A stretch of 64,000 nt of DNA. Source: a virus. Location of the stretch: IMG/VR virus record IMGVR_UViG_3300046003_007336, positions 32,001 through 96,000 of that record. The stretch is one strand, 5' to 3'. This document shows positions 22,506-55,332 of the stretch, piece after piece. Position numbers and translations under genes: made by a program. Under the pieces are notes generated by a model, which had not been told where the DNA came from, searched no databases, and saw nothing but the letters and a program-made list of their open reading frames with translations. The stretch's first letter is position 1; each line of letters opens with the position of its first letter.

Positions 22506-22577
22506 GGGCGGCACAGCCAGTGCAATGGGAATAAGCTTTCCCAGAAGAGTGGGAGTGGCTCTCCCCTCCGTCCACCA
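22506..22577 (+). ncRNA. Degenerate tRNA-like RNA with Ala acceptor identity
   Basis: GGGCGG/CCGTCC with G3:U70, A73, CCA; hairpins TGGGAA/TTCCCA (loop contains AGC) and GGGAG/CTCCC. Confidence 0.5.
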
Positions 22578-22582
22578 AACAG

Positions 22583-22661
22583 GGGCCAGAGAACCACAGG
22601 CGTGGTTCGACGGTGAAGGGGGTCGCTCCTCCATGGGGTTCGATGCCCCACTGGTCCACCA
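22583..22661 (+). ncRNA. Non-canonical tRNA-like RNA with Ala acceptor identity
   Basis: 7-bp acceptor GGGCCAG/CTGGTCC (G3:U70), A73, CCA; canonical T-arm TGGGG-TTCGATG-CCCCA; 7-bp hairpin in place of the D-arm. Confidence 0.7.
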
Positions 22662-22689
22662 TTTCAACACCAACATCCTGGGAGGATGC

Positions 22690-23544
22690 TATGACACTGC
22701 GGGACGCCTAACAGAGACCTACCGGACTTTCTGCCTCGAACGCGGCATTGAGTTTCATGAGGTCAAGAGTGTGAGACCACACGACAACACGACCTTGTTC
22801 TGCCCTGCGGGGATGCAGCAGTTCAAGGAAGACTACCGGGGACATCGTCGCGGGACCGTATCCAATATTCAGTCCTGCATCCGGCTCAATGATCTGGATG
22901 AAATCGGCGACCAAACCCACCACCTAACCTTCGACATGATCGGGCTGTTTTCGTTCCGTGACATGAGCGTTCTGGAGACCATCGATTTCTGGTTCGAATT
23001 CCTCTCCAAGATTGGCATCAAGCCCGACGTGGTCACCATCCACCCGGACAAGATGCTGGACTGGCGAGAACTCTATCGGGGCCGCGACGTAGAAATACGG
23101 CCGGACCCGGAGTGCACGTGGTCGGACGGCGGCATGGGTGGATACTGCACGGAGTTCTACGTCAGAGGCGTGGAGATCGGCAACATCGTGAATACCAACG
23201 GAGATTCAATCGACGTCGGTTTCGGGATGGAACGCCTTCTCTGGGTTCTCGGCGAAGAAACGCCACCGCGTGGGGACATCCTGGTCCGCACCATCGACCG
23301 CATCGTTGAGTCGGGATACCGGCCCAGCGGCAAGCAGCAGGGTCATGTGCTCCGGCGCCTGATCGGGTTGCTGACAGACGAGGGCAGCCATCCCAACCAC
23401 CCCGAGGTCGTCAGCGAGACGTCCAGACGGGTGAAGCTCTCGGAACGCTTCGACCGCCTTTGGCCGAAGCATCAAGACAAGTCGCCAGAGTGGTGGCTGG
23501 ACACCCACGGTATCGTGGTGTCTGAAATGGTCCTCAGGGTGTAG
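22690..23544 (+). CDS. alaS: Truncated alanyl-tRNA synthetase (aminoacylation domain only); start codon uncertain
   Basis: TTLFCPAGMQQFK, NIQSCIRLNDLDEIGDQTHHLTFDMIGLFSF, GYCTEFY...EIGNIV, IDVGFGMERL, GHVLRRLI; about 285 aa with no editing or C-Ala domains. Confidence 0.85.
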   Translation, partial: YDTAGRLTETYRTFCLERGIEFHEVKSVRPHDNTTLFCPAGMQQFKEDYRGHRRGTVSNIQSCIRLNDLDEIGDQTHHLTFDMIGLFSFRDMSVLETIDFWFEFLSKIGIKPDVVTIHPDKMLDWRELYRGRDVEIRPDPECTWSDGGMGGYCTEFYVRGVEIGNIVNTNGDSIDVGFGMERLLWVLGEETPPRGDILVRTIDRIVESGYRPSGKQQGHVLRRLIGLLTDEGSHPNHPEVVSETSRRVKLSERFDRLWPKHQDKSPEWWLDTHGIVVSEMVLRV

Positions 23545-33396: not shown

Positions 33397-33560
33397 GCGG
33401 TTTCTTCTTCTACCGTCTGCGATACCACAATGGTGAATTTCTTGTTCCGAATGACCTCCGACATGGCTTGGCTTTCGGCGAGGAGATCGGCAACAGCCTG
33501 CTCCAGTGCTTCCTTTGCTGCCAATGCTTTTGCTGCCCTGTTGCTTCGGGGTGCGCTCAT
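33393..33560 (-). CDS. Small late protein (55 aa)
   Basis: TAAATA and GGAG upstream on the minus strand; MSAPRSNRAAKALAAKEALEQAVADLLAE. Confidence 0.55.
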   Translation of the reverse strand: MSAPRSNRAAKALAAKEALEQAVADLLAESQAMSEVIRNKKFTIVVSQTVEEETA

Positions 33561-33644
33561 TGCGGTCTCCGGTGGTTGGATTTATTTATCCAATTGTACG
33601 GAAGCGTTCACAAACCAAAAAATGCCGAAAATGCTAAATAAGAT

Positions 33645-33673
33645 TTGACAGCAGGAACCCTCCTCTGTATATT
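33645..33673 (+). promoter_or_regulatory. sigma70-like promoter of the Gly/Glu tRNA operon
   Basis: TTGACA-N17-TATATT. Confidence 0.8.
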
Positions 33674-33682
33674 CGAGAAACT

Positions 33683-33796
33683 ATGACAAACCTGTTCAAC
33701 ACGTCTGGCCTGAACGCCGCCCTCCTGGGCGGTCGCGGTGGCGTGCGCGGTGCTGGGGAACGAGAACGTTCCGCCGGGCTGCGAGGTTGTCTCTAA
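33683..33796 (+). CDS. Putative Gly(/Glu)-rich leader peptide MTNLFNTSGLNAALLGGRGGVRGAGERERSAGLRGCL
   Basis: 37 codons with 9 Gly and 2 Glu, between the promoter and tRNA-Gly/Glu genes. Confidence 0.6.
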   Translation: MTNLFNTSGLNAALLGGRGGVRGAGERERSAGLRGCL

Positions 33797-33867
33797 ACAC
33801 CTCTTCCTTCCTATAGGAACAGTCCGGCGAAGATCACATAGGTTGGCCCCTGTGTGACATTGCTGAT

Positions 33868-33941
33868 GCGGGTGTAGCTCAATGGTAGAGCCGCTGCCTT
33901 CCAAGCAGAAGACGAGAGTTCGATTCTCTCTATCCGCTCCA
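33868..33941 (+). tRNA. tRNA-Gly(TCC)
   Basis: Cloverleaf, U73, CCA. Confidence 0.95.
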
Positions 33942-33956
33942 GCAAATCTCCAGTCT

Positions 33957-34028
33957 GTTCCAGTAGCTTAAAGGCAGAGCAACTGATTTTCAATCAGTCA
34001 GGTGGCGGTTCGACTCCGCTCTGGAATA
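33957..34028 (+). tRNA. tRNA with TTC (Glu) anticodon on an atypical body
   Basis: Cloverleaf ACTGA-TTTTCAA-TCAGT; D-stem GCTT/GAGC; no CCA. Confidence 0.75.
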
Positions 34029-39331: not shown

Positions 39332-39372
39332 ACTCGTTGACGAAAAGTGCCCACCGGAGGTAAAAGGTCCGG

Positions 39373-39782
39373 TCATCCAATAGATGGTCACGGTGGTGGT
39401 GGGCTTAAGGGCAGCCATCCATAAAGAGTTGCGAGAGGAAGAAAGTAGGCGCGAGCCAAAATCAAGAGTCCCGTCTGCTATGATGGGGGTGTAATGACCT
39501 CCTAGCTTGGATACCTGAACGGACGGGCTTAGAACCTCAGGGAGTGTGACAGACTACAAAACGCCCGGAAGGCGTGGGAAGCCCAAGGCCAGCGATGGTT
39601 CTGAGTTCCGCCCTGCTTCACTGGAGTCGAAAACGTCGGGTAGCACAGTTGCAGTTTTGCCCGCGTATTACAAGCGGAACTGCGGGTTTGACTTGGGAGC
39701 CGATGGTGTAGGTAGCCGGAGCTTCTGGGGACGACTGCAACGGCCCTTAGAGCATTTAGCGTAGCAGCAAGCCACTGTGGCC
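39373..39782 (+). ncRNA. Candidate ~400-nt structured ncRNA of unknown class
   Basis: TTGACG-N17-TAAAAG promoter; closing helices GGTCACGGTGG/CCACTGTGGCC and TAAGGGC/GCCCTTA; no credible ORF. Confidence 0.6.
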
Positions 39783-39811
39783 TTCTATTGGATGATGAGT
39801 TGGAGGAATAA

Positions 39812-40752: not shown

Positions 40753-42064
40753 ATGTCGGTGGACGAGGTTCGTGATGCCATTCGCGACGACAGGGCCAGA
40801 CTAGAAATCGAACTCGTCCTCCGCGTCGGATATGATGCGAAGATCGATTACATCCCGCACACCAAGGGGTACAAGATCGGCGGCGGATGGTCGCGTATGC
40901 GTGCCAACGTTCGCCGGTCCAAGAGACCCTTCGTGATTATCATGCCGGGCGGTACGTCTCGCTGGCGCCGGTTCGAAACCTGGGAAGCCCTGTCCGAAGC
41001 CGTGCAGGCAATGTGATGGAAGTCCTCTTCAATACATTGCGGGCAGTGGGCGCCGTCTTGCTCTTCGTCGGCATCCTCTATGGAGGCGGCAAGCTTATCC
41101 AGAAAGCCACCATGGCCCCGATGGGCTGGTTGTTGCGCGGGTGCATGAAAGATTTCTGGTTCCATCTTCAGTCCGCCATGCCGGGAAACTACGAGGTCAA
41201 CAAGATCATCTATAGCAGGGCCCCGACTTTTCTCAGTCGGTTCTCTCCGTATCGGCATTTCCTTATCCTAACCCCCATCGTCGGATGTTTGGCACTAGAT
41301 GCCATCACGCGAGATATGCGACGTGAGAGCAAATGGATTGCGCGCGGCCTCGGCGTATGGGGGCTGGACAGCTTTCGAAAGCATTTCTATCAGAACGATA
41401 TCGAAATCATCGAATGGTTGAGCGACAACTGCGAAGGCAAGTTCGAGTTCATCTTTACTGAGATGGGCCGCCGCATACCGAGTCGTTTCTCTGTGTCCCA
41501 GCGGGACGTGATGATTTCGTTCTCGTCCCCGGCCGATTTCCTCAAGGTCAGATTGGTGTTCGACGCCAAGCTGCCATCGGAACATAATTGATGATCTGGC
41601 TCTGTCAGCGGTTTAGGCACCAGACTGGCTGGGAGGGTGCCGACGAATGGGAGTCGCCGAGAAGACGCGCCACAAGACTTAACTGCAAGACCTTTGTGTT
41701 CGAGTTTTCTACCGGAGTCGCGCACCTGTTCCGCCGCTATCGCCAGCCTCTGCGTTTCCCCCTGTCAGGCTTTCCGTTCAGCCCGGCAGACTGGCAGGCC
41801 ACGATCTCTCTGCGGACCCATCTGAAACGCTCGGTCGATACGACCGACGACCATTTGCCCATCTTCCCCATTGGTGAAAACGACGCCCTCGACTGGCTGA
41901 TCAAGAACCTCAAAGGGAAGGTGAAGTTCACCGCTGTCCTCGACCGAAATGACGTAGCTGGTCTCGTCAACGATGCCGCGTATGCCGTCCTGGCATTCAC
42001 CGACACCCGCGATGAAGCCGCCTTCCAACTTTTTTTCGATGGCGGCGAAGTTTTTATTGACTAA
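40753..42064 (+). CDS. Hypothetical ORFs ~40753-41016, 41016-41591 (membrane), 41588-42064
   Basis: Overlapping junctions; last two end in the shared motif. Confidence 0.55.
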
Positions 42065-42092
42065 AGGTCACCCGTGATACTAAATAGGGGCT

Positions 42093-42169
42093 CGCGGGGT
42101 AGAGCAGTCCAGTAGCTCGTTTGGCTCATAACCAAAAGGTCGGCGGTGCGAATCCGTCTCCCGCACCCA
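42093..42169 (+). tRNA. tRNA-Met(CAT), initiator-like
   Basis: C1:A72 mismatch, CGCGGGGTAGAGCAG start, CT-CAT-AA loop; only two G-C pairs at the base of the anticodon stem; followed by terminator AAAAGCCCTCGGTCTCACCGGGGGCTTTTT. Confidence 0.88.
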
Positions 42170-42254
42170 TTTCGAAAAGCCCTCGGTCTCACCGGGGGCT
42201 TTTTCAATTCTATTTTTTGGTTGACATAAAATCCGACTTCGGCGATAACGGCGT

Positions 42255-42955
42255 CGAGGTTAACTCGCAACGATAGAGCAACGGCCCGGAGGGACCGGGA
42301 CAGGCAGCGGTGTCTGTTCTAGGCTGACGGCGGCACTCTAGAGGGGCTTGCAGACGGGGATAGGGCCCACCAGCCCGATTCCCCGTCGCCTCAATGTGGT
42401 CAGATGGGTCTCCGTCTGGCATCACCATCCTAACCTTCATGGACGTTGGTGCGTTCGCCGGAGGGACAAGTATGTGAACGCGGCCCTCAAAAGCCGAAAT
42501 GTTGCTGGGTCAGGCGCAGTGCGCGCTGAGACCAAATACTGGAGTTGGGCGGTGGTCCTTCTGACCACATTAGGTCTTTGACATTCGTCGCCTGTCTTTG
42601 ATAGGGCGTAGGTCGATGGTCGGGCCCGTGGTCGCCCGCACTCAAGCGAGTGGTGGGGTTCGATTCCCCGAGGCCCGGTGTAGTTCTCGAATGGATAAGC
42701 GGTTCGTCCCTCATCCGAGATCGTTTGCGCCTACAGGCGACGTCTACTAAAACTAAGGGGCTAGTCCTGGCCCGCTGAGAAGTGTCGCCCGACCAGCCAA
42801 GAGTGCTCCGGGATAGTCGCTCAGCATAAGCCTACAGGACACACCGTGGGGCGCGACACCCCGCGATGAACACGCGTTGCTATTGCGCGTCCGGGAAACA
42901 ACTGTTGGTCCGGTTAACTGGCAAACACTTAGATTAGTCGGGATTTTTTTCCGAC
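42255..42955 (+). ncRNA. Candidate ~700-nt large structured ncRNA with an embedded tRNA-like T-arm module
   Basis: TTGACA promoter at ~42221; long-range pairs AATGTGGTCAGA/TCTGACCACATT and GTCGCCTGT/ACAGGCGAC; GGGG-TTCGATT-CCCC arm. Confidence 0.6.
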
Positions 42956-42959
42956 TTAT

Positions 42960-43391
42960 ACCCTCCCTCTATACCTGTCGGCCCCGATGTGCTGTTTAGA
43001 GCAAAGCATATCCCCGACTGACTGCACCAGATGCGGCTGAAATGCCAAATCGTCTACCCAGTATACAGGCGTATGCTGGGGGTCTTGAGCGCAAGGTCTG
43101 AACGCTTCGGCGTTCCGGTGGGGGAAGGGGGCTCTGTTGGTGGCGCAGATGCGCCTAGGCTGTGGGTCCACGTCAACTGAACGGCCCCATTAGATTTCGG
43201 TGCCAGGGGTGGAAGGCCTTCCTGAACCTGTGGCTGGAGTCTCGAAATGCAGTCGAGGCGGGTAGAAAGCGAAACCGGACTGGGACTGACCCTAGCACCG
43301 GGCCGCGTTGACAAGCACCGCCCCGCAAGCGCGGGTAAGTCGTGTGCGCTTCCTACAGACGAAGGGGCGGGGGAAACCCTGCCCCTTTTTT
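42960..43391 (+). ncRNA. Candidate ~400-nt structured ncRNA ending in a terminator
   Basis: No credible ORF; hairpins such as GAACGC-TTCG-GCGTTC; terminator AAGGGGCGGGG-GAAA-CCCTGCCCCTT followed by a T-run. Confidence 0.45.
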
Positions 43392-43441
43392 TCTTGACAA
43401 GATTTCCGTCCGTGGTAGCAGTACGGAAACAGGAGAGTCTT

Positions 43442-44107
43442 ATGAACCGTCGTACTTTCTTCGCCAGCATTCTCGGCGCCTCAGTTGCGGGCACGCTCGG
43501 CAGTCTCGCAGTTCCCGCATGGGCGCGCGCCGACGAGAGCCTGAACATCTATGTTCGCCTGATCGACCTCCAGAAGGCGATGCTGGCCAACCACGAAACC
43601 TGGAAGAGCGGCCCGGCGTTCGCCCACGTGCCCGAACTCGACGACCCCTTGGATACGCGCCCCGATGTCGAAAAGCGTCGCCGCCACCTCGTCGAACAGC
43701 GAATCGCTGACCGCCACGCGGCCCGCAAGAACTACGATCTGACCCCGGCTGACGCCGTCCTCGCGCACCTGAACGCCCATTTCGCCCCCGACGCCAGCGA
43801 CGTCAGCGAGGCCCTCGTGCGCCAAGCCCGCGCCGAGGCCAACGCGGTTGGCGGCGTGAAAATGTCCAGAACGGATTTCCGTCGCGAGGTCGCCATTGAG
43901 CAGGCTCGGCGAGAAGTCCGGGCCGTGTTCAACCGAGAAATCGAGATCGACACCATGTCGGAGGCCAGCATGCGCCGCGTGCTGAAATCGACGGTCGCCG
44001 TCGCGGTCGTCAAGGGCATGCTGTCGGTGCACAAGATGCCCCTCGACCCCAAGAAGATGGGCGCCTTCAACGAGTTCGCGACGAAGTTCAGGCACATCAT
44101 CCTTTAA
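43442..44107 (+). CDS. Exported protein with twin-arginine (Tat) signal peptide
   Basis: MNRRTFFASILGASVAGTLGSLAVPAWARA; GGAG SD, TTGACA promoter. Confidence 0.7.
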   Translation: MNRRTFFASILGASVAGTLGSLAVPAWARADESLNIYVRLIDLQKAMLANHETWKSGPAFAHVPELDDPLDTRPDVEKRRRHLVEQRIADRHAARKNYDLTPADAVLAHLNAHFAPDASDVSEALVRQARAEANAVGGVKMSRTDFRREVAIEQARREVRAVFNREIEIDTMSEASMRRVLKSTVAVAVVKGMLSVHKMPLDPKKMGAFNEFATKFRHIIL

Positions 44108-44142
44108 CTTGACAGTTTCCGGCCAAGGTGATTAAATAACTG

Positions 44143-44545
44143 CGTGTTGGTGACCAAATCAACCGCTTAGGCAGGACCGGGGTGCGAATCCCCGCGCCTC
44201 CACCAAAAACACATAGCCCGCTGAGATACGCGGGGAGCCGACTGTCATGTAAGCCGGGTTGGGGTTTCTAGAGCCCTGGCTATCAACGGTAGATCGGGGA
44301 CAGTCACAAGGCGGCTAGAGTTCCTTAGCGGGGGCAACAGTCTAGGCTCGCTACGACCGATATGGTCTGTGTGTTTTTGATGGGGGCGAATAGCTATCGA
44401 CTGATAGGCGTAGAGGCGAGAGACACCGGTAAGAAACGACCGAAAATCAGTTCAAATTTCTACCTGCCAACGACAACGTTGACATGGGTTCCTACGCCCT
44501 CGCGGCGTAAGGAACTCGGGGCCCACTGGGGGCCTAGCAACAGAA
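44143..44545 (+). ncRNA. ssrA: Two-piece (circularly permuted) tmRNA
   Basis: Acceptor piece ...GACCGGGGTGCGAATCCCCGCGCCTCCACCA ends at 44205; coding piece starts GGGGGCGAA at 44382 (G3:U70); tag ANDNVDMGSYALAA-stop at 44466-44510. Confidence 0.93.
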
Positions 44546-44635
44546 GGGGAGACTTCGGTCTCCCCACCTTTGTTTCGGTTGACCGTTTCGAAATCTCCGA
44601 CTAAACCGGTCTACGAAATAATCCGAGAAAAGCCC

Positions 44636-45073
44636 ATGACCATCGAAGCCCGTATCGCCCTCGTAGAAGACGTCCGTCCGCACGGTGATCACATGTCCAT
44701 CGTGACCATCTCCGGTCATGAGGTCGTGGCCAATCGTGACGAGAACGGCGAGTTCCGTTTCCGGGTCGGCGAAGCCGCCATCTACGTGCCCGAGAATGCC
44801 ATCATCCCCGAGGAGTTCCTCAAAGACCGTGGCTACTGGGACGAGACCAAAGGCAAGGGTCTGCTCGGCGGCTCCAAGGGGAACCGGGTCAAGATGCAAC
44901 GCTTCATGGGCTTCGAGAGCCGTGGGTTGGTCTGGAAGGTCCGCGAGTCCACCGAGCCGGGCACCTACATCGTGGACCGTCACTGCGGCAACCCTGGTTT
45001 CGAGTCCGGTGAAGCCAGCGTCGGCGACGACTGTGCTGCATTCTTCAATCTGTCCGAATACGTCGCGGCCTGA
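44636..45073 (+). CDS. Stand-alone OB-fold/tRNA-binding-like domain (similar to the N-terminus of DRB0094-type RNA ligases)
   Basis: ARIALVEDVRPH.DHMSIVTISGHEVV...FRVGEAAIYVPENAIIP. Confidence 0.6.
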   Translation: MTIEARIALVEDVRPHGDHMSIVTISGHEVVANRDENGEFRFRVGEAAIYVPENAIIPEEFLKDRGYWDETKGKGLLGGSKGNRVKMQRFMGFESRGLVWKVRESTEPGTYIVDRHCGNPGFESGEASVGDDCAAFFNLSEYVAA

Positions 45074-54365: not shown

Positions 54366-54493
54366 CCCGCCTTATACCGCCCATGCGGGTATCCGTCCAT
54401 CTCGACCCTGTGGATAACTCAGTGGACGAAAAAAGTTCACTGCACTGTACGATTTTTGTTGACCCAAATCGGGCCCCTCCCTATAGTTCATTT

Positions 54494-55332
54494 GTCGCTT
54501 GGGACTGACAGCCGCCCGCAAGGGTGGTCAAAGGTCGGGGTTGTCGCCCCGGTCGCCATCGCAAGGTGGTCAAGCCAAGCAAGCGTCACATCTCACTGAG
54601 AAATCGGTGTCTGGCATTTCGGTGCTGGGTATCGTTATTCCGGTGTCCTGTTGAGCCTGTCCAACCAGAGATGGCGGATAGGCGAACACAGGCGGGGGAC
54701 CGTCTGTGGAGGGCAATCCGACCGGGAGAAGCGAGAAGGTGAAGGCGTGGGACGGTCAGTCCGAGGAGCAGGATAGGCTTCTAGGGCGACGTCCAGTTGA
54801 CGGGTGAAGTCTTGCCGCCAGTACCCTTTCGAGGGTCTGGAGCCACGGAAGGCGGAGTCCGGTAGACGGTTCCCTGAGTCCGGGGAGCATGAGGGCGTGT
54901 GGTATTTTGTGGGCCAAAAGCTCACGGAGCCACGGTAAGCACGACCTCTGACAAAAACCCGCTGGGTTCCGACCCAGCACCATCATGCAAGGTGTTAAAA
55001 CCAAGAGAAAGCCTTACCGGTTTCGTGTGAAAGATGGTTCCTATCCTGGGACGCAAGTCGCCAGGATGCCCGGAGGTCTCAAGCCGAAGGGTCCAGTCTC
55101 GGGAAAGTATTCTGCAAGGGTTCGCAAGCCTTTGTAGACGACGGACGGGACAGTAGCACGAGATGACAGTCTACCGCCTGACTTAAAACGGCACCATCGA
55201 TTGGCGAGGGCGTGGTGACATGTCTGGAGCCGGGAGGGAACCAATACTCCTCCTACGGCCGATCACGGAACCCGTGGCTCTCAGGGTTTCAAAACCTCAA
55301 AGGGGTGTTTGGTGAAAACCAGACGCCCCTTT
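54494..55332 (+). ncRNA. Large ornate structured RNA, GOLLD-like (~830 nt)
   Basis: TTGACC-N17-TATAGT promoter; many GCAA/TTCG-capped hairpins; segments GTATTTTGT..CCAAAAG..AGCAC, CAGTAGCACGAG, TTAAAACGGCA and CTCTCAG resemble GOLLD 3'-domain conservation as recalled; ends in hairpin AAAGGGGTGTTTGG/CCAGACGCCCCTTT. Confidence 0.7.

Follow-up and report, generated by a model that had tools for sequence, protein, structure and literature searches.

We tentatively read positions 42221-43393 of the DNA analysed here as a single plus-strand gene, running from promoter to terminator, for an orphan 'ornate' phage RNA of ~1.15 kb that carries a tRNA-like handle. The DNA, called the window below, is a 64-kb piece of a viral contig from IMG/VR (bases 32001-96000 of a total of 198,512), and coordinates are window positions unless stated. 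We place this reading a little short of an even chance, and no higher because the RNA is a singleton. A structured non-coding RNA had been proposed at this place in an earlier note on the same DNA (the original prediction), and we agree: folding and arm complementarity exceed those of shuffled sequences and favour the plus strand, and both promoter-like and terminator signals are present. The features of the stretch, with those of its predicted fold, are as follows.

42221-42249, + strand: sigma-70-type promoter-like site, with -35 TTGACA at 42221-42226, a 17-nt spacer and -10-like GATAAC at 42244-42249; a T-run stands before it
42276-42822, + strand: Domain A, with a segmented 27-bp closing stem (42276-42347/42770-42822), a hairpin at 42297-42320 and a three-branch core (H1, H2, H3)
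42353-42387, + strand: H1 hairpin, with an 8-bp stem GACGGGGA/TCCCCGTC and the cap GGGC-CCACCA-GCCC
42393-42571, + strand: H2 branch, 179 nt, with stems of 12, 5 and 9 bp (6 G.U) and a multiloop of three small hairpins
42586-42742, + strand: H3 branch, 157 nt, with a stem of 10 bp plus 12 bp (4 G.U) that bears the tRNA-like module and a 3' hairpin
42621-42677, + strand: tRNA-like module, made of an acceptor, a short hairpin and a canonical T arm, without anticodon loop and without CCA
42828-43351, + strand: Domain B, with arms 42828-42969/43255-43351, including the 9-bp helix GGTCCGGTT/AACCGGACT, and about ten local hairpins
42936-42956, + strand: hairpin with a U-rich loop and without a U-tail, not listed as terminator-like
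43361-43388 (extended to 43393 in the feature list), + strand: intrinsic terminator, a 12-bp G+C-rich hairpin followed by a T-run; the probable 3' end

The stretch is non-coding. The longest open reading frame (ORF) in 42205-43441 on either strand spans 77 amino acids, and the ten small ORFs of the stretch have no significant match in Pfam or PHROG, the best being to one PHROG at E 0.059. Codon periodicity is absent: the spread of G+C content between codon positions is 0.02-0.13 over 42040-43420, apart from a slight rise to 0.20-0.22 at 42880-43060, as compared with 0.25-0.5 in the flanking genes. The ORF-free DNA extends to 43441, a gene starting at 43442, and is the longest such stretch of the otherwise tightly packed 198.5-kb contig. 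The original prediction had seen no credible ORF here, and hidden conserved ORFs, which it named as grounds for abandoning the idea, were looked for and not found.

The promoter-like site lies 52 nt 3' of an initiator-type tRNA-Met gene, past the terminator hairpin of that gene; the TTGACA that had been noticed after the tRNA is indeed there, 17 nt before GATAAC. The same layout, TTGAC(N)-N17-(T/A)A-rich, also precedes tRNA-Met itself (at 42057), the tmRNA gene (44109) and a neighbouring RNA that begins at 39337. At the other end, the terminator at 43361-43388 is the sole intrinsic terminator found in the stretch, and the next promoter-like TTGACA follows it directly, at 43394. The original prediction had ended the RNA after ~700 nt, at 42955, and had counted a neighbouring 'third RNA' as separate. 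We rejected 42955 as a transcript end: the T-run of the hairpin at 42936-42956 lies in its loop, and no U-tail follows. Given the lack of a terminator at 42955, the single terminator at 43361-43388 and the new TTGACA right after it, the simplest transcription unit probably runs from ~42256 to ~43390, which gives a predicted transcript of ~1.15 kb. This unit probably merges the ~700-nt element with the adjacent 'third RNA', which falls in Domain B.

In a partition-function fold of 42245-43395, 247 pairs reach a probability of at least 0.7 (termed confident); they are arranged in two closed domains. The core of Domain A contains two perfect long-range helices, both within a base or two of where the original prediction had placed them. 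The 12-bp helix of H2 pairs AATGTGGTCAGA (42393-42404) with TCTGACCACATT (42560-42571) and has an imperfect extension (22 nt, 82%); the 10-bp helix of H3 pairs CGTCGCCTGT (42586-42595) with ACAGGCGACG (42733-42742). In Domain B, several shorter long-range helices close a row of hairpins. No internal duplication between Domains A and B was found.

The long-range pairing is above chance. We scored the gain on pairing of two arms against 200 shuffled partners, with arms swapped between the domains as cross-controls. The H2 arms (42393/42560) gave a z-score of -9.9 and the H3 arms (42586/42733) one of -5.7, with 0/200 shuffles as good in either case; the closing stem of Domain A scored -4.0 (2/200 shuffles) and the arms of Domain B -2.0 (5/200 shuffles). 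The cross-controls were not significant. The minimum free energy (MFE) was compared with that of dinucleotide shuffles. On the plus strand, the z-scores are -4.4 for Domain A, -2.6 for its core, -6.1 for H1, -3.1 for H2, -3.2 for H3 and -2.4 for Domain B; on the minus strand they are -3.4 for Domain A, -0.4 for Domain B, -4.6 for H3 and -2.7 for the core. Since the values for H3 and the core do not favour the plus strand, our strand call rests on the G.U pairs, the absolute energies, the promoter and the terminator. G.U pairs make up 33 of the 247 confident pairs and would read A.C on the opposite strand, and the plus-strand MFE is lower by 24-31 kcal/mol for each large domain.

The tRNA-like module lies ~370 nt into the RNA, on the 22-bp stem of H3. 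Its acceptor pairs CGGGCC(C) at 42621-42627 with (A)GGCCCG at 42671-42677 (6 bp plus a C.A mismatch), and its T arm, TGGGG-TTCGATT-CCCCG at 42654-42670, has a 5-bp stem that includes the equivalent of G53-C61. A single hairpin at 42639-42652, with 5 bp and a 4-nt AAGC loop, replaces the D and anticodon arms, and the interval from acceptor to T arm is only 26 nt. The original prediction had described an element that mimics a tRNA acceptor and T arm but lacks CCA; it is present at 42621-42677 and lacks an anticodon loop as well. GTGTA stands directly 3' of the acceptor in place of CCA, whereas CCA is encoded in 15 of the 17 tRNAs of the window. A CCA-adding enzyme is absent from the 198.5-kb fragment. 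ARAGORN calls no tRNA at 42621-42677, and the Rfam tRNA model (RF00005) has no match there, as a cloverleaf with a 7-nt anticodon loop, a D arm and a 3' CCA is lacking. The best Rfam models for these positions score below threshold: mascRNA with 26.2 bits (E 0.02, cut-off 42.5) and tRNA-Sec with 20.7 bits. The module is a copy of none of the phage's own tRNAs. Its sequence and predicted pairs show the features by which RNase P recognises a minihelix, namely coaxial acceptor and T stems of together ~12 bp and a canonical T loop. The geometry is that of a substrate of RNase P and RNase Z, with ends that run into the RNA like those of a pre-tRNA, and we infer that the module is cleaved.

We compared the stretch with all Rfam families, both at gathering cut-offs and at E<=10. 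Apart from the sub-threshold tRNA-like matches, nothing was found up to E 10. RNase P RNA, SRP RNA, 6S RNA, tmRNA and group I/II introns were thus set aside as identities of the stretch; the original prediction had likewise been unable to assign it to either of the first two or to tmRNA, and the tmRNA of this phage is a separate gene. RF01998, a piece of group II introns, and the riboswitch or leader families had no match either. The suggestion that the RNA might be ROOL-like found no support: ROOL (RF03087, gathering score 99.1 bits) gave no match at E<=10, and a family-specific search, whose control was silent in every genome, was also empty. For T5 RNAX we built a covariance model of its 5' domain from eight T5-like phages (R2) and ran it with filters off over 41500-44800; it aligns the T arm only, at 42655-42669 with 6.2 bits. 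Mimicry of rRNA was considered as well, and short-word BLAST against E. coli rrnH gave 9-10-mers at chance level, although the positive control, the RNA at 39337, also yielded only 9-mers. To probe the idea of a Y-RNA, a TROVE/Ro60 protein was looked for, and it is absent from the 198.5-kb fragment.

Judged from its split family-B DNA polymerase, the contig comes from a giant T4-like phage whose host is probably an alphaproteobacterium; the source of the DNA is a lake. This enzyme is 59-60% identical to those of the uncultured phages G050 and G051 (424 and 457 kb), the nearest relatives in IMG/VR. For Sinorhizobium phage Phosso the identity is 52% and for Agrobacterium phage Atu_ph07 47%; the closest cultured relatives infect alphaproteobacteria. 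The tmRNA, which is permuted and of alpha type, agrees with such a host. CheckV puts the completeness of the contig at 44%, and if this figure is right the full genome measures ~450 kb.

When the whole contig was searched specifically for GOLLD (RF02032, gathering score 150 bits) at E<=10, there was no match in 42221-43395 and a single one elsewhere:

54890-55287, + strand: GOLLD-like RNA, 116.6 bits and E 3.8e-33 against RF02032; its 5' part probably starts from ~54495, with a promoter-like site at 54459

The standard Rfam scan had missed this copy because its score is below the gathering score. GOLLD is also present in G050 (215867-216331, 200 bits, with a tRNA-Asn inside), in G051 (352780-353233, minus strand, 178 bits, immediately upstream of tRNA-Met) and in Phosso (33533-34001, 187 bits). 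Atu_ph07 has no GOLLD.

GOLLD was described by Weinberg et al. in 2009 and forms a nanocage in cryo-electron microscopy (bioRxiv 10.1101/2024.12.08.627333). It occurs near tRNA islands; the env-38 copy is downstream of Met-tRNA, and some copies have tRNAs or a pseudo-tRNA inside (bioRxiv 10.1101/2024.12.08.627333; PMC6582537). The context of our stretch matches these traits, being phage-borne, beside tRNA genes and with an embedded tRNA-like piece. Both are large phage RNAs (~0.8 kb or more for GOLLD, which is known from lake and phage sequence) with two domains. They differ in that the tRNA-like piece of the stretch sits on a stem within Domain A, whereas that of GOLLD sits in the linker between the domains, and in that the stretch has no covariance-model match, the phage's GOLLD-like copy being a separate locus.

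T5 RNAX is annotated in GenBank AY543070 as a misc_RNA of 719 nt at 40848-41566, a 'stable RNA with unknown functions' beside tRNA-Arg. RNAX is also known from the T5-like phages DT571/2 and BF23, and relatives occur in 527 phage records. Its 5' domain presents a tRNA-like piece without CCA on a long stem, and in a consensus fold of this domain 14 of the 38 predicted pairs stay paired despite two-sided changes among T5-like phages. The layout recurs in our stretch: a promoter-driven non-coding RNA of at least 0.7 kb (0.7-1.3 kb for the two) in a tRNA gene region, bearing on a long stem a tRNA look-alike that lacks both CCA and anticodon. There is, however, no sequence similarity; the relatives of RNAX are numerous and show covariation, whereas the stretch has none; RNAX has its module close to the 5' end, as compared with ~370 nt in here; and the lineages, Demerecviridae and a T4-like giant phage, are unrelated. 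What the stretch has in common with GOLLD and RNAX is the layout, and it is a member of neither.

The best-scoring Rfam model, mascRNA (RF01684) of MALAT1/MEN-beta, is likewise a reduced cloverleaf without CCA that is embedded in a long non-coding transcript, and MALAT1/mascRNA supplies a model for processing by RNase P and RNase Z. It is, however, a vertebrate nuclear RNA, and with a score under the cut-off of 42.5 we note a likeness in shape and claim no membership. Phage T4 itself has the species 1 and 2 RNAs (rnaC, rnaD), stable non-coding RNAs in its tRNA cluster that are matured by tRNA-processing enzymes and whose function is unknown. As generally described, they resemble our candidate as non-coding RNAs encoded beside tRNA genes in a T4-type phage, but measure 120-140 nt, compared with 1.15 kb here.

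Relatives of the stretch were sought by BLAST, nhmmer, covariance-model and pattern searches. There was no homolog in GenBank phages (blastn), in G050 and G051 (BLAST and nhmmer), in Phosso and Atu_ph07, in 118 phage loci that share the rRNA-like motif of the RNA at 39337 together with 49 large whole phage records, in 43 loci with the same type of tRNA-Met or in seven metagenome contigs with the same tmRNA end. E. coli genomes also gave none, in a search that was insensitive owing to the size of the database. A covariance model of H3 (R1), run on 20 giant-phage records, found only itself and gave 3.7 bits on the best-placed candidate in G050; exact-pattern scans had one match, to an unrelated phage. 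There is hardly any synteny with G050 and G051, and the tmRNAs have strongly diverged too. The sole comparative hint is an analogy: in G050, tRNA-Met is followed by ~1 kb without ORFs that opens with a stem-closed domain holding a tRNA-like element without CCA (fold z-score -4.1) and continues with a tRNA-Ile(GAU)-like gene that has a ~118-nt insertion in its D loop.

Several points weigh against our reading. No homolog of the stretch was found in any set searched, so the fold stays a prediction from a single sequence, unsupported by covariation or signs of selection; the flanking proteins, too, lack relatives in viral or metagenome contigs. The tested arms were picked post hoc from the MFE fold, which makes their z-scores somewhat flattering. 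The MFE z-scores are moderate, and the minus strand does as well or better for some parts (H3 -4.6, core -2.7). A fold of H3 in which the T arm is formed lies 6.5 kcal/mol above the H3 MFE. The -10 element is weak, and a strict scan for the promoter consensus did not list the site at 42221.

Much of the same evidence could be had from a string of independent small RNAs (H1, H2, H3 with its tRNA-like piece and the hairpins of 42828-43351), co-transcribed and then processed by RNase P/E in the manner of T4 rnaC and rnaD. The strongest signals are local, the H2 arms (-9.9), the H3 arms (-5.7) and H1 (-6.1) standing above the arms that close the domains (-4.0 and -2.0). Domain B consists largely of short hairpins, processing could naturally be signalled by the tRNA-like piece, and TTGACA occurs again inside the stretch, at 42578 and 43308. 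These internal sites have poor -10 elements, however, and no internal terminator was found; the closing arms of Domain A beat 198 of 200 shuffles, which the cross-controls do not, and Domain A as a whole (-4.4) scores better than its core (-2.6). No module matches an Rfam family or recurs elsewhere. We regard a set of separate small RNAs as unlikely, if still worth serious consideration. Less probable again, in our view, is that the DNA has no function: a decaying remnant of tRNA and other genes, with a pseudo-tRNA, that folds because of G+C-rich composition and old inverted repeats. The stretch is a strict orphan with nothing similar in any relative or collection searched, the genes next to it are likewise orphans, there is hardly any synteny with relatives, its module has no CCA while 15 of the 17 tRNAs in the window do, and the whole-region z-scores are modest and alike on both strands. 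Decay fits poorly, however, with the longest ORF-free stretch of a tightly packed contig, with a promoter-like site and a strong terminator exactly at its ends, with perfect 12-bp and 10-bp long-range helices that continue in extended G.U-containing pairing, with the energetic preference for the plus strand and with a place among other RNA genes.

Two further explanations appear very improbable. A highly divergent GOLLD, ROOL or T5 RNAX might go unrecognised by the models, and the setting in a tRNA island downstream of tRNA-Met, the embedded tRNA-like piece and a length of 0.7-1.2 kb are as in GOLLD and RNAX; the GOLLD copies of this clade, moreover, score unevenly (200, 178, 117 and 40 bits). 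Yet the GOLLD model that finds another locus of the same genome at E 3.8e-33 finds nothing here at E<=10, ROOL has no match, the RNAX model aligns a T arm alone (6.2 bits), and the sequence is similar to none of them. We give equally little credence to a long cis-acting leader that would control the gene at 43442-44107 through the terminator at 43361-43388. Stretch and gene are directly adjacent on the same strand, with the terminator 54 nt ahead of the start codon, but a separate promoter-like TTGACA (43394) stands between the two, 1.1 kb far exceeds the length of known leaders, matches to riboswitch or leader families are lacking, and nothing looks like a leader peptide with a ribosome-binding site.

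We therefore return to the reading of one promoter-to-terminator gene. Among the large 'ornate' phage RNAs, a guild that includes GOLLD and T5 RNAX and is marked by tRNA-like pieces and a place in tRNA islands, the candidate RNA would form a separate family. On this model, the tRNA-like module would be a handle by which the host's machinery for tRNAs takes hold of the RNA. Much as in a pre-tRNA or in MALAT1/mascRNA, cleavage by RNase P would fall 5' of C42621 and cleavage by RNase Z/E 3' of G42678, and the two stems of H3 would hold the flanking parts together after cutting. The stable folded body might then act in the take-over of translation by the phage, as a scaffold or decoy.

The original prediction had raised the idea of a new class, which is possible but unproven. 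We consider it rather doubtful that the RNA is the first sighting of a hitherto undescribed class of phage RNAs, large, with two domains and a tRNA handle, which coexists with GOLLD in the same giant phage; if true, giant phages of this kind deploy several unrelated 'ornate' RNAs. An RNA of such a class might build larger particles, or might be a decoy for tRNA-recognising host factors or defences. Large folded phage RNAs in tRNA islands (GOLLD, ROOL, T5 RNAX) are abundant yet puzzling molecules, and some form RNA-only cages. If yet another, unrelated RNA has this layout, lying downstream of tRNA-Met and holding an anticodon-less, CCA-less tRNA-shaped piece on a long stem, that would hint that the combination counts for more than any single family. 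It would also be of note that such an RNA occurs in a phage equipped with GOLLD, a tmRNA and numerous further genes related to translation. The tRNA-like handle gives a concrete approach, through processing by RNase P/Z and binding partners, to molecules that are hard to approach. As the case rests on one sequence, its value is that of a lead.

The stretch is part of an island of RNA genes that comprises tRNA-Met, an RNA of no assigned family at 39337-39811 that carries an rRNA-like motif, the stretch itself and tmRNA, with the GOLLD-like RNA 12 kb off. ARAGORN finds 17 tRNA genes and the tmRNA in the 64-kb window. The neighbouring features are as follows.

42057: promoter-like site of tRNA-Met
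42093-42169: tRNA-Met(CAT), initiator-type, with a C1.A72 mismatch and encoded CCA
42174-42204: terminator hairpin of tRNA-Met
43442-44107, + strand: downstream gene for a 221-aa protein with an N-terminal Tat-like signal peptide, MNRRTFFASILGASVAGTLGSLAVPAWA
44109-44601 (ARAGORN) or 44105-44554 (Rfam): tmRNA, a separate gene downstream of the non-coding stretch

A search of 5.8 billion proteins with the 221-aa protein returned only its own cluster, from five contigs; tblastn gave a single weak match in G050 (29% identity over 116 residues). TTGACA hexamers are dense in this region: six lie on the plus strand within 2.3 kb (42221-44484), out of 16 plus-strand copies in the whole window. Three of the six are at promoter-like sites, two inside the non-coding RNA (42578, 43308) and one in the tag-coding part of tmRNA (44479).

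The T-arm/acceptor end of the tmRNA (27 nt, 44176-44205) is identical in the seven metagenome contigs searched above (L276-L282). In five of these the tmRNA body is 75-82% identical to that of the phage, the best being L279 (82% over 194 nt), and the flanks are otherwise dissimilar. The phage may have taken its tmRNA from a host lineage.

Unusual tRNA-like sequences turned up at several other places. The tRNA-Ile(GAU) of G050 lies at 181902-182093 of that genome (11702-11893 of the extracted locus L191), with a 7-bp acceptor stem that closes 191 nt, ~118 of them in the D loop. Two further tRNA-like genes of G050, at 208115-208397 and 209545-209672, measure 283 and 128 nt. All three end in CCA, and ARAGORN misses them because of their insertions, which may be introns at an unusual position or permanent expansions. 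On the minus strand of an unrelated phage (L002, IMGVR_UViG_3300020599_000001), mini tRNA-like elements at ~6780-6730, 6380-6335 and 5945-5900 occupy three successive gaps between small genes. Each has a 5-bp acceptor, a short linker and a T arm, without CCA, and two of them have the linker AACGGTTTTCG in common; their appearance is that of tRNA-type punctuation, or of processing signals, within an mRNA. In the window itself, a tRNA-like sequence of 76 nt that ARAGORN does not call sits in the Ala/Pro tRNA block and overlaps the start of a 339-aa ORF (22525-23544):

22583-22658, + strand: uncalled tRNA-like sequence; its 7-bp acceptor stem is perfect, and it has a T arm and CCA

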